Below are positions 2,918 to 5,773 of a stretch of DNA of 64,000 bases, piece after piece. Position 1 is the stretch's first letter. The number at the start of each line of letters is the position of its first letter. The stretch is from the NCBI RefSeq assembly GCF_044647545.1, contig NZ_CP172818.1; one strand, 5' to 3'. A program made the position numbers and the translations under genes. The notes beneath the pieces were generated by a model. The model did no database searches. It was given only the letters and a program-made list of their open reading frames with translations, and was not told the origin of the DNA. Origin of the DNA: Escherichia coli. GTDB lineage: Bacteria > Pseudomonadota > Gammaproteobacteria > Enterobacterales > Enterobacteriaceae.

Positions 2918-3922
<1,005 letters not shown>

Positions 3923-4111
3923 CAAAAGCAATTTCTCCGGGATTCTGTATACAAAAACGCCGTAAAGTTTGAGCGAAGTCAATAAACTCCCTACCTATTC
4001 AGGGCAATATCTCTCTCGCAGGTGAATGCAACGTCAAGCGATGGGCGTTGCGCTCCATATTGTCTTACTTCCTTTTTTGAATTACTGCATAGCACAATTG
4101 ATTCGTACGAC

Positions 4112-4139
4112 GCCGACTTTGATGAGTCGGCTTTTTTTT
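4112..4139 (+). terminator. Rho-independent terminator-like hairpin with T-run
   Basis: gccgactttgatgagtcggc followed by tttttttt. Confidence 0.5.
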
Positions 4140-4196
4140 GCCTGTTATTTATCAGCGTCTACCCTTTAAGAGTCCACCCAATGACCGGAGGGAAAT

Positions 4197-4370
4197 ATGA
4201 CGACACTTATTTATTTGCAAATTCCTGTCCCTGAACCGATTCCTGGCGATCCTGTTCCAGTACCAGATCCGATCCCTCGCCCGCAACCCATGCCTGACCC
4301 ACCACCCGATGAAGAACCGATTAAATTGTCGCATCGTGAGCGTAGATCTGCGAGGATACGCGCCTGCTAA
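4197..4370 (+). CDS. Candidate small proline-rich protein (57 aa), below the ORF-track size cutoff
   Basis: ATG preceded by ggaggg; translation MTTLIYLQIPVPEPIPGDPVPVPDPIPRPQPMPDPPPDEEPIKLSHRERRSARIRAC; immediately upstream of dbpA. Confidence 0.35.
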   Translation: MTTLIYLQIPVPEPIPGDPVPVPDPIPRPQPMPDPPPDEEPIKLSHRERRSARIRAC

Positions 4371-4399
4371 CTTTGCGTCGATGACCACGAGAATAGATT

Positions 4400-5773
4400 G
4401 TGACCGCTTTTTCTACCCTGAATGTTTTGCCTCCCGCCCAACTCACGAACCTTAATGAGTTGGGTTATTTAACTATGACGCCGGTGCAGGCTGCCGCGCT
4501 TCCGGCGATCCTTGCCGGAAAAGATGTTCGCGTGCAGGCGAAAACCGGCAGCGGCAAAACGGCGGCTTTTGGCCTCGGCTTGTTACAGCAAATTGATGCG
4601 TCGCTATTTCAAACCCAGGCTTTAGTGCTGTGTCCTACGCGTGAACTGGCGGATCAGGTGGCAGGTGAATTGCGTCGGCTGGCGCGTTTTCTGCCAAATA
4701 CCAAAATTTTGACGTTGTGCGGTGGTCAACCGTTCGGTATGCAGCGTGATTCGTTGCAACATGCGCCGCATATTATCGTGGCAACGCCGGGCCGTTTGCT
4801 GGATCACTTGCAAAAAGGCACGGTATCACTGGATGCGCTGAATACTTTGGTGATGGATGAGGCCGACCGCATGCTGGATATGGGATTTAGCGATGCCATT
4901 GATGATGTCATCCGTTTTGCGCCTGCATCTCGACAGACGCTTCTGTTTTCGGCAACCTGGCCGGAAGCCATCGCCGCAATCAGCGGAAGAGTGCAGCGCG
5001 ATCCTTTAGCGATTGAAATTGACTCAACAGATGCTCTGCCACCTATTGAACAACAATTTTATGAGACATCCAGCAAAGGCAAAATTCCGTTGTTGCAACG
5101 GTTATTAAGTTTGCATCAGCCATCCTCTTGCGTGGTGTTTTGCAATACCAAAAAAGATTGCCAGGCTGTCTGCGACGCGCTGAATGAAGTAGAGCAAAGT
5201 GCATTGTCGTTACACGGCGATCTGGAGCAACGTGATCGCGATCAGACCCTGGTACGTTTTGCTAACGGTAGCGCCCGTGTACTGGTTGCGACTGATGTTG
5301 CTGCGCGTGGTCTGGATATTAAATCGCTTGAGCTGGTGGTGAACTTTGAGCTGGCGTGGGACCCTGAAGTTCATGTACATCGCATCGGCCGTACAGCGCG
5401 TGCAGGAAATAGCGGTCTGGCGATCAGTTTCTGTGCCCCGGAAGAAGCACAGCGGGCCAATATCATTTCTGACATGTTGCAGATAAAACTTAACTGGCAA
5501 ACGCCGCCAGTTAATAGTTCCATTGTGCCGCTGGAAGCAGAAATGGCAACGTTATGTATCGATGGCGGGAAAAAAGCCAAAATGCGCCCGGGTGATGTAT
5601 TAGGTGCGCTGACAGGAGACATCGGGCTTGATGGCGCAGATATTGGCAAAATCGCCGTGCATCCGGCGCATGTCTATGTCGCGGTGCGTCAGGCTGTTGC
5701 TCATAAAGCATGGAAACAGTTACAGGGCGGGAAGATTAAAGGAAAAACGTGCCGGGTGCGGTTATTAAAATAA
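4400..5773 (+). CDS. dbpA: DEAD-box ATP-dependent RNA helicase DbpA
   Basis: 457 aa; GTG start; Walker A AKTGSGKT, DEAD box (VMDEAD), SAT motif. Confidence 0.92.
   Translation: MTAFSTLNVLPPAQLTNLNELGYLTMTPVQAAALPAILAGKDVRVQAKTGSGKTAAFGLGLLQQIDASLFQTQALVLCPTRELADQVAGELRRLARFLPNTKILTLCGGQPFGMQRDSLQHAPHIIVATPGRLLDHLQKGTVSLDALNTLVMDEADRMLDMGFSDAIDDVIRFAPASRQTLLFSATWPEAIAAISGRVQRDPLAIEIDSTDALPPIEQQFYETSSKGKIPLLQRLLSLHQPSSCVVFCNTKKDCQAVCDALNEVEQSALSLHGDLEQRDRDQTLVRFANGSARVLVATDVAARGLDIKSLELVVNFELAWDPEVHVHRIGRTARAGNSGLAISFCAPEEAQRANIISDMLQIKLNWQTPPVNSSIVPLEAEMATLCIDGGKKAKMRPGDVLGALTGDIGLDGADIGKIAVHPAHVYVAVRQAVAHKAWKQLQGGKIKGKTCRVRLLK

Follow-up and report, generated by a model that had tools for sequence, protein, structure and literature searches.

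Known cases in which a short open reading frame governs the gene that follows it are the arrest or leader peptides, such as SecM-secA, TnaC-tnaA, ErmCL-ermC and MifM-yidC2: a stalling-prone motif lies in the upstream frame, initiation of the downstream gene is weak, the regulated gene always follows and the RNA possesses a conserved alternative structure. A second kind of system is that of the polyproline proteins, with at least three consecutive prolines in a strong context. Three prolines flanked by aspartate form a strong ribosome-stalling context, and stalls of this kind are normally relieved by EF-P and not by a specific effector; in CadC, an EF-P-dependent polyproline protein, the PPP motif tunes the copy number. 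Concerning the helicase gene dbpA, its product DbpA remodels the peptidyl-transferase region of 23S rRNA, and to our knowledge almost nothing is known about the way in which the gene itself is regulated. The small protein YnaL was described by VanOrsdel et al. 2018 (PMC6001520), who detected its translation by immunoblot of a chromosomal SPA-tag fusion, found the gene positive in tetracycline-inhibited ribosome profiling and suggested a possible ynaL-dbpA operon. In our literature search this was the only paper in which YnaL is discussed, and neither there nor elsewhere was a partner, a phenotype or a function reported.

We analysed a stretch of 64,000 nucleotides of Escherichia coli (contig NZ_CP172818.1), here called the window. 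An earlier note, made from the letters alone, had pointed to a proline-rich frame of 57 codons upstream of dbpA, opening at ATG 4197 behind a GGAGGG, and had considered it unlisted and probably unannotated. All the elements of this description can be read in the sequence: the frame occupies 4197..4370 on the plus strand (57 codons plus the stop TAA at 4368-4370), the Shine-Dalgarno sequence GGAGGG lies at 4187..4192 (plus strand) with a spacer of 4 nt to the ATG, and the product is MTTLIYLQIPVPEPIPGDPVPVPDPIPRPQPMPDPPPDEEPIKLSHRERRSARIRAC (57 aa). However the gene itself is not new, being the already annotated and experimentally detected ynaL, whose extent is supported by RefSeq, Pfam, the list of ORFs and the published YnaL sequence. 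RefSeq names it 'ynaL: proline-rich small protein YnaL'; the coordinates were confirmed in E. coli FDAARGOS_497, where the protein is WP_001296046.1, and in K-12 MG1655 the gene is b4743 / YP_009518775.1 (1409308-1409481), flanked by fnrS (b4699) and dbpA. The Pfam profile PF23677, 'Protein YnaL-like', aligns its positions 1-57 with residues 1-57 (E=2.1e-40, 136.9 bits with a cutoff of 27), and the sequence given in PMC6001520 is exactly the 57-aa sequence of the window. No difference from YnaL of E. coli K-12 was found: the 57 aa are identical, the gene likewise sits between fnrS and dbpA, and the Pfam profile is matched over its full length. The suggestion of the earlier note that the frame might be a genuine small protein is thus borne out by the annotation, the complete PF23677 match, the tagged protein and ribosome profiling of PMC6001520 and the purifying selection described below. 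Among solved structures no relative of YnaL was found, and its exact sequence had no match in the cluster collection, in which the protein is present under longer gene calls (for example P0002).

At the DNA level, the 521 bases of the window from 3900 to 4420 are 100% identical to E. coli FDAARGOS_497 and 97.9% identical to the listed lab-derivative strains (tolC-, BL21(RP)), in a comparison made up of these strains with K-12 MG1655 itself left out. Since the window comes from a non-K-12 strain, the DNA around ynaL differs from that of laboratory strains, while the protein is the same. The region is nearly universal in the species: megablast with 3900-4420 as the query found it in 5,392 of 5,426 complete E. 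coli genomes, with a coverage of at least 80% in 5,390.

Upstream, zntB ends at 3922 in the window and is followed by the sRNA FnrS with its intrinsic terminator (4018..4139, plus strand), identified by Rfam RF01796 (134.8 bits over 4018-4135) and by the K-12 annotation; the terminator lies at 4112-4131 and its T-run reaches 4139. FnrS was the only Rfam family found in 3800-4600, and it adjoins ynaL in every locus examined, including those in which dbpA does not. With its own Shine-Dalgarno sequence, ATG and ORF, ynaL is a self-contained unit just downstream of FnrS and zntB. The 57 nt that separate the FnrS terminator from the ATG of ynaL contain TTGCCT (4138-4143) and C-TACCCT (4160-4165), two hexamers that are conserved in about 87 sequences around a spacer of 16 nt, variable in sequence and fixed in length (4138..4165, plus strand). 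This arrangement resembles a weak ynaL promoter and can be proposed, from its sequence, as a candidate only; it remained below the threshold of the consensus scan, and a sigma-S reading of it is weakened by the enrichment of DbpA in exponential phase (PMC13393375). The TTGCCT hexamer overlaps the end of the T-run of the FnrS terminator. A different micro-ORF is found on the other side of zntB, where 15 codons at 2878-2925, ending 13 nt upstream of zntB, correspond to the RefSeq 'protein YnaN' (b4773 in K-12); this known micro-ORF is possibly a leader of zntB.

Downstream, the gene for the ATP-dependent RNA helicase DbpA occupies 4400..5773 (plus strand) as the 3' neighbour of ynaL. The distance of 30 bp between the two genes given earlier has to be corrected to 29 nt (the TAA ends at 4370 and dbpA begins with GTG at 4400), and the aligned start codon of dbpA is GTG in all but a few of 92 related sequences. 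The spacer (4371..4399, plus strand) contains a conserved CGAGA, a weak SD-like element before the GTG; it has no terminator and its fold reaches only -2.1 kcal/mol.

Homologues bearing PF23677 occur in Escherichia, Salmonella, Citrobacter, Enterobacter, Klebsiella, Raoultella and Kosakonia, and also in Leclercia, Lelliottia, Superficieibacter, Pseudocitrobacter and other genera. When 1.84 billion representatives were searched exhaustively with the profile, only 34 clusters were returned, and the YnaL family is therefore narrow. We aligned 30 homologous proteins, and in the alignment the start position and the first ~15 residues vary freely, the near-invariant parts being DPxPxPDPIPRPQPMPDPPPDEEPIK(L/M)SH and RSARIRAC. 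For the analysis of DNA, loci from eight genera were combined with 85 loci recovered from a species-level genome collection by the degenerate pattern PDPPPD-(D/E)-x-PIK. The ynaL frame is open in all collected loci, an in-frame ATG stands behind an SD core in 83 of 88 related loci, and the frame with its SD-ATG is maintained across more than 90 species.

Two parts of the frame can be distinguished before its last third. Codons 1-17 (4197..4247, plus strand) are rich in leucine and drift in length and sequence in both the protein and the DNA alignments. They are followed by the proline-rich core D18-E40, DPVPVPDPIPRPQPMPDPPPDEE (4248..4316, plus strand), which includes the DPPPD motif at 4296-4310 and which is under purifying selection at the protein level. 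Within codons 18-32, a part that the search pattern did not cover, conservation has a period of 3 nt: the first and second positions show an entropy of ~0-0.1 bit at Pro, Asp, Arg and Gln codons and, at the variable V/I/M codons, values reaching 1.3 bit, with third positions at 1.2-1.9 bits, near saturation. The Nei-Gojobori pN/pS over 15 lineages is 0.196 for the core (pS=0.71, near saturation) and 0.104 for dbpA in the same genomes, against 1.9 and 3.8 in the shifted plus-strand frames of the core. The conservation and codon-substitution analysis that the earlier note had proposed as a check therefore reveals purifying selection on the frame, which is more than a chance occurrence, as also indicated by the retention of the SD-ATG. 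The conserved SD and the pN/pS also lend indirect support to the translation detected in PMC6001520. As judged from these substitution patterns, what selection preserves is the peptide itself, an acidic and proline-rich core of ~23 residues with DPPPD, with an N-terminus that drifts.

The same data bear on the opposite explanation, namely that the conservation is only a nucleic-acid signal, in RNA or DNA, and that the open frame is incidental. Over the whole gene this is very improbable, given that codons 18-40 combine fixed first and second positions with third positions close to saturation, that a pN/pS of 0.20 is obtained in this frame only, that frame and SD-ATG are kept in so many species and that the protein has been detected experimentally; for the core it is refuted by the codon-position entropies and pN/pS. 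It does hold for the last third of the gene, where two blocks, which we call A and B, are frozen at all positions and block B even where it is untranslated; for the tail of ynaL a nucleic-acid constraint is the favoured reading.

Indels of ynaL were in-frame in the sequences examined. Salmonella enterica (P0053) carries an in-frame duplication of 10 aa (PDPRPHPQPM) and E. coli E69 (L032) an in-frame deletion of 11 codons, both in the proline-rich region and both of the repeat-slippage type. Other variants concern the two ends of the gene. Three loci of Escherichia species outside E. coli sensu stricto (L022, L050, L083) have a weakened SD, AAAGGG instead of GGAGGG, together with a double ATG at the start and His46 replaced by Gln. 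In Klebsiella michiganensis / grimontii (L054, L089, L092) the usual stop is missing and the frame continues for 84 aa, overlapping the dbpA start in another frame. Insertion sequences between FnrS and ynaL are rare and were found in two E. coli strains: IS200C in TUM1226 (L097), where the annotation of ynaL is kept, and IS1A in STEC388 (L098), where the N-terminus is altered and a YnaL of 61 aa is still annotated.

To what extent ynaL belongs to dbpA can be seen in genomes where the two are not adjacent, our sample of which consists of four loci only (L099, L100, L101 and L102), taken from weaker profile matches. All four have zntB and FnrS upstream of ynaL (Rfam 83-133 bits). In L099, L101 and L102 a terminator hairpin and then the convergent ttcA come after ynaL, dbpA being absent there, while in L100 ttcA stands between ynaL and dbpA, and the region upstream of dbpA is unrelated and lacks the blocks. 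The hairpins that follow ynaL where dbpA is absent have energies from -17 to -23 kcal/mol; the stable ones of L099, L101 and L102 lie at -21 to -23 kcal/mol. The ZntB proteins of L099 and L102 are 88% and 84% identical to that of E. coli, values comparable to those of Kosakonia and Klebsiella, and those of L100 and L101 are more distant (68%). Several of the weaker matches keep the core as SDPxPTDPVPIPDPIPxPQPxPDPP... and have a different C-terminus. The core of ynaL is therefore kept regardless of dbpA, which disfavours a dbpA leader as the conserved role and favours a stand-alone small protein: ynaL is not primarily a dbpA leader. The proposal that the frame could be a translated leader for dbpA is accordingly not supported as a conserved role, three of the four divergent loci ending ynaL with a terminator and without dbpA.

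The motif DPPPD itself varies among the weaker matches, with APPPD in P0121, DPPPE in P0135 and no PPP at this place in P0138 and P0139. A divergent subclass (P0136, P0139, P0142, P0144 and P0148; loci L099 2501-2677, L100 2501-2692 and L101 2501-2677) has a second polyproline right at the end of the protein, ...DPPPH(R/M)-stop. Three prolines so near a stop codon are unusual and may affect termination.

The two blocks of the last third are block A, CCGATTAAATTGTCGCAT, codons P41-H46 (4317..4334, plus strand), which is conserved at all three codon positions, and block B, AGATCTGCGAGGATACGCGCC, codons R50-A56 (4344..4364, plus strand), also conserved at all codon positions. Their third-position entropies are 0.16 bit for block A, although the search pattern left the third positions of its codons CCN ATH AAR free, and 0.04 bit for block B, in comparison with 1.12 bits in the flanking PDPPPDEE codons and 1.02 bits in codons 6-20 of dbpA. 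The 9-12 nt between the blocks are variable at all positions. Both blocks are invariant across ~15 genera in which dbpA adjoins ynaL, as seen in a set of 92 sequences that requires PIK and is hence blind to dbpA-adjacent genomes lacking block A. Fifteen of the 92 distinct sequences have an earlier in-frame stop that excludes block B from the ORF, and block B is unchanged in all of them. These stops belong to at least three lineages (TAG in the E. cloacae type, TAG or TAA in the Lelliottia type, and TAA or TGA at a different codon in the Kosakonia cowanii type) and sit directly after ...PIK(L/M)S(H)R, deleting the RSARIRAC tail; they are always past block A and never ahead of it. Since block B remains invariant though untranslated in 15 sequences, its constraint is one on the nucleic acid rather than on the tail of YnaL. 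Moreover, both blocks are missing from all four loci without adjacent dbpA; the tail of L102 reads PYKLSR and shows synonymous differences from block A, such as CTA in place of the Leu codon TTG, which is what a nucleotide freeze dependent on a neighbouring dbpA would lead one to expect. The appearance of the two blocks is that of a so far undescribed control element at the junction of ynaL and dbpA and not that of a protein feature. Block B contains the rare codons AGA, AGG and ATA, an SD-like GAGG and a GATC site. The blocks are unique in the window, where no second copy was found.

We considered what such an element could be. One rather unlikely possibility is that blocks A and B are a promoter or operator of dbpA, for instance a weak extended -10 (TG-n-GAGGAT) with a GC-rich discriminator (ACGCGCC). 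The presence of two conserved blocks at a fixed spacing of 9-12 variable nt, found solely where dbpA is adjacent, is consistent with this, as are the TGcGAGGAT geometry that can be read in the sequence and the failure of RNA structure to account for the blocks. However in 3850-4500 neither strand yielded a sigma-70-like site in the consensus scan, and the TG-n-GAGGAT read by hand is weak; the distance from TTGTCG of block A to GAGGAT, 20 nt, is too long for sigma-70. Moreover, all the bases of the 21-nt block are invariant, more than promoters normally need, and in L100 the sequence preceding dbpA is another one, from which the blocks are missing.

Several other functions of the conserved bases were evaluated and rejected. 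In the consensus fold the sole conserved helix is one of 6 bp between two invariant hexamers, in block A and in UGUGAC at the start of dbpA; this pairing of block A with the start-codon region does no better than shuffled sequences (P 0.40) and has no compensatory substitutions. A hairpin between blocks A and B likewise gave a shuffle P of 0.65 without compensatory changes and is broken in 12-30 of the 92 sequences, and the E. coli RNA fold of the region is unremarkable (z=-0.46). Concerning an autoregulatory site for DbpA that mimics hairpin 92 of 23S rRNA, the fraction of random 54-mers from the window scoring at least as high was 0.44 for nt 2454-2606 and 0.78 for the whole 23S, and the blocks alone gave random-match fractions of 0.22-0.99, no excess over chance. 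The pairing of FnrS with the 3' region of ynaL and the initiation region of dbpA has an ordinary duplex energy (fraction 0.56). Dual coding was also discarded: in 69 of 92 sequences the sole other open frame of the plus strand contains an ATG, which depends on a freely varying synonymous site, and the first codon positions of the antisense frame fall on variable sites.

A further possibility is that ynaL acts in cis as a stalling leader, a pause at DPPPD altering the exposure of the downstream mRNA and hence the translation of dbpA. Pausing would occur under a shortage of EF-P or of peptidyl-transferase capacity, and the supply of the helicase would be tied to the status of translation. Several observations fit this proposal: DPPPD occurs unchanged in all 30 aligned proteins; the constraint at the protein level stops after PPPDE and that at the nucleotide level starts at 4317, ~15 nt past the PPP codons; premature stops never precede block A; and no terminator stands before dbpA, whose GTG start and weak CGAGA SD are located 14-30 nt past the ynaL stop. 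Moreover, in a proteomic study of 2026 (PMC13393375) DbpA as well as EF-P was enriched during exponential phase, a finding compatible with coupling that shows no more than a correlation. The proposal is contradicted by the persistence of the same core with a terminator of its own and without dbpA in L099, L101 and L102, and by its separation from dbpA in L100. In addition, no conserved RNA structure joins the blocks to each other or to the start of dbpA, and the full-length tagged YnaL accumulates (PMC6001520), from which it follows that a stall is not terminal. We therefore regard the leader as doubtful.

A narrower version, restricted to E. coli and its relatives, in which the coupling of ynaL and dbpA is specific to this clade, is also rather improbable. 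Just as tentative is the idea that, from Escherichia to Klebsiella, the blocks (4317-4364) are a cis-regulatory element coupling dbpA to EF-P or peptidyl-transfer capacity, a link suggested by the fact that ribosomes must cross DPPPD, ~15 nt upstream, before reaching the blocks. If true, this coupling would establish a feedback between the DbpA helicase and the success of ribosomes at difficult peptide bonds.

The explanation that we prefer, with a probability of roughly 85%, is that the ORF is the known translated gene ynaL, that its product is a stand-alone protein acting in trans and that the last third of the gene overlaps an element of the ynaL-dbpA junction. YnaL would be an intrinsically disordered small protein, polyproline-II-like, acting alone in trans on some partner; this role is suggested by two observations, purifying selection and persistence without the downstream gene, and ynaL might still act in cis on a target other than dbpA. 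Its synthesis would depend on EF-P, as expected from the PPP in an Asp-flanked context. In the group formed by Escherichia, Salmonella, Citrobacter, Enterobacter, Klebsiella and Kosakonia, dbpA comes directly after ynaL, begins with GTG behind a weak SD and is not preceded by a terminator; here the two genes are probably transcribed together, with ynaL as the first cistron. The frozen element made of blocks A and B would serve this junction and not the protein.

With the gene ynaL already known, what is new here is the pair of frozen blocks at the ynaL-dbpA junction. Blocks of 16 nt and 21 nt, present only where dbpA abuts ynaL, offer a well-defined candidate for an element that controls dbpA, one that is easy to mutate. 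On the other side, selection on the peptide, and the association of the gene with FnrS and zntB and not with dbpA, turn the search for the function of YnaL away from a simple dbpA leader.

Comparing YnaL with known systems, the P-x-P repeat composition is shared with the proline-rich spacer of TonB and with antimicrobial peptides such as apidaecin and oncocin. Kinship with TonB was rejected as compositional only (NCBIfam E=2.9e-4, with 20.8 bits where the cutoff is 315; Pfam TonB_N E=0.68, with 11 bits where it is 33), and by inspection of the sequence YnaL has neither a membrane anchor nor the TonB C-terminal domain. The likeness to the antimicrobial peptides is also only compositional; these are strongly cationic, whereas the proline-rich part of YnaL is acidic (net ~-5).

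There is also a resemblance to the arrest and leader peptides, with which ynaL shares the short upstream ORF, the stalling-prone motif and the weak downstream initiation, together with a peptide conserved up to the stall site and nucleotides conserved after it. However, unlike them, ynaL survives without the downstream gene in several lineages, so that the rule by which the regulated gene always follows holds for 92 of 92 E. coli-type sequences and fails in L099-L102; no stall-sensitive RNA switch was found, the 6-bp helix being no better than shuffles where those systems have a conserved alternative structure, and YnaL accumulates in full length. A further resemblance is that to EF-P-dependent polyproline proteins. 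YnaL, like CadC, possesses PPP, here in a strong DPPPD context present in 30 of 30 aligned proteins (its presence in the 92 genome loci is a requirement of the search pattern and not independent evidence), and distant relatives add a second DPPP before the stop. CadC is a folded protein with a PPP insert, whereas YnaL is essentially one proline-rich segment.
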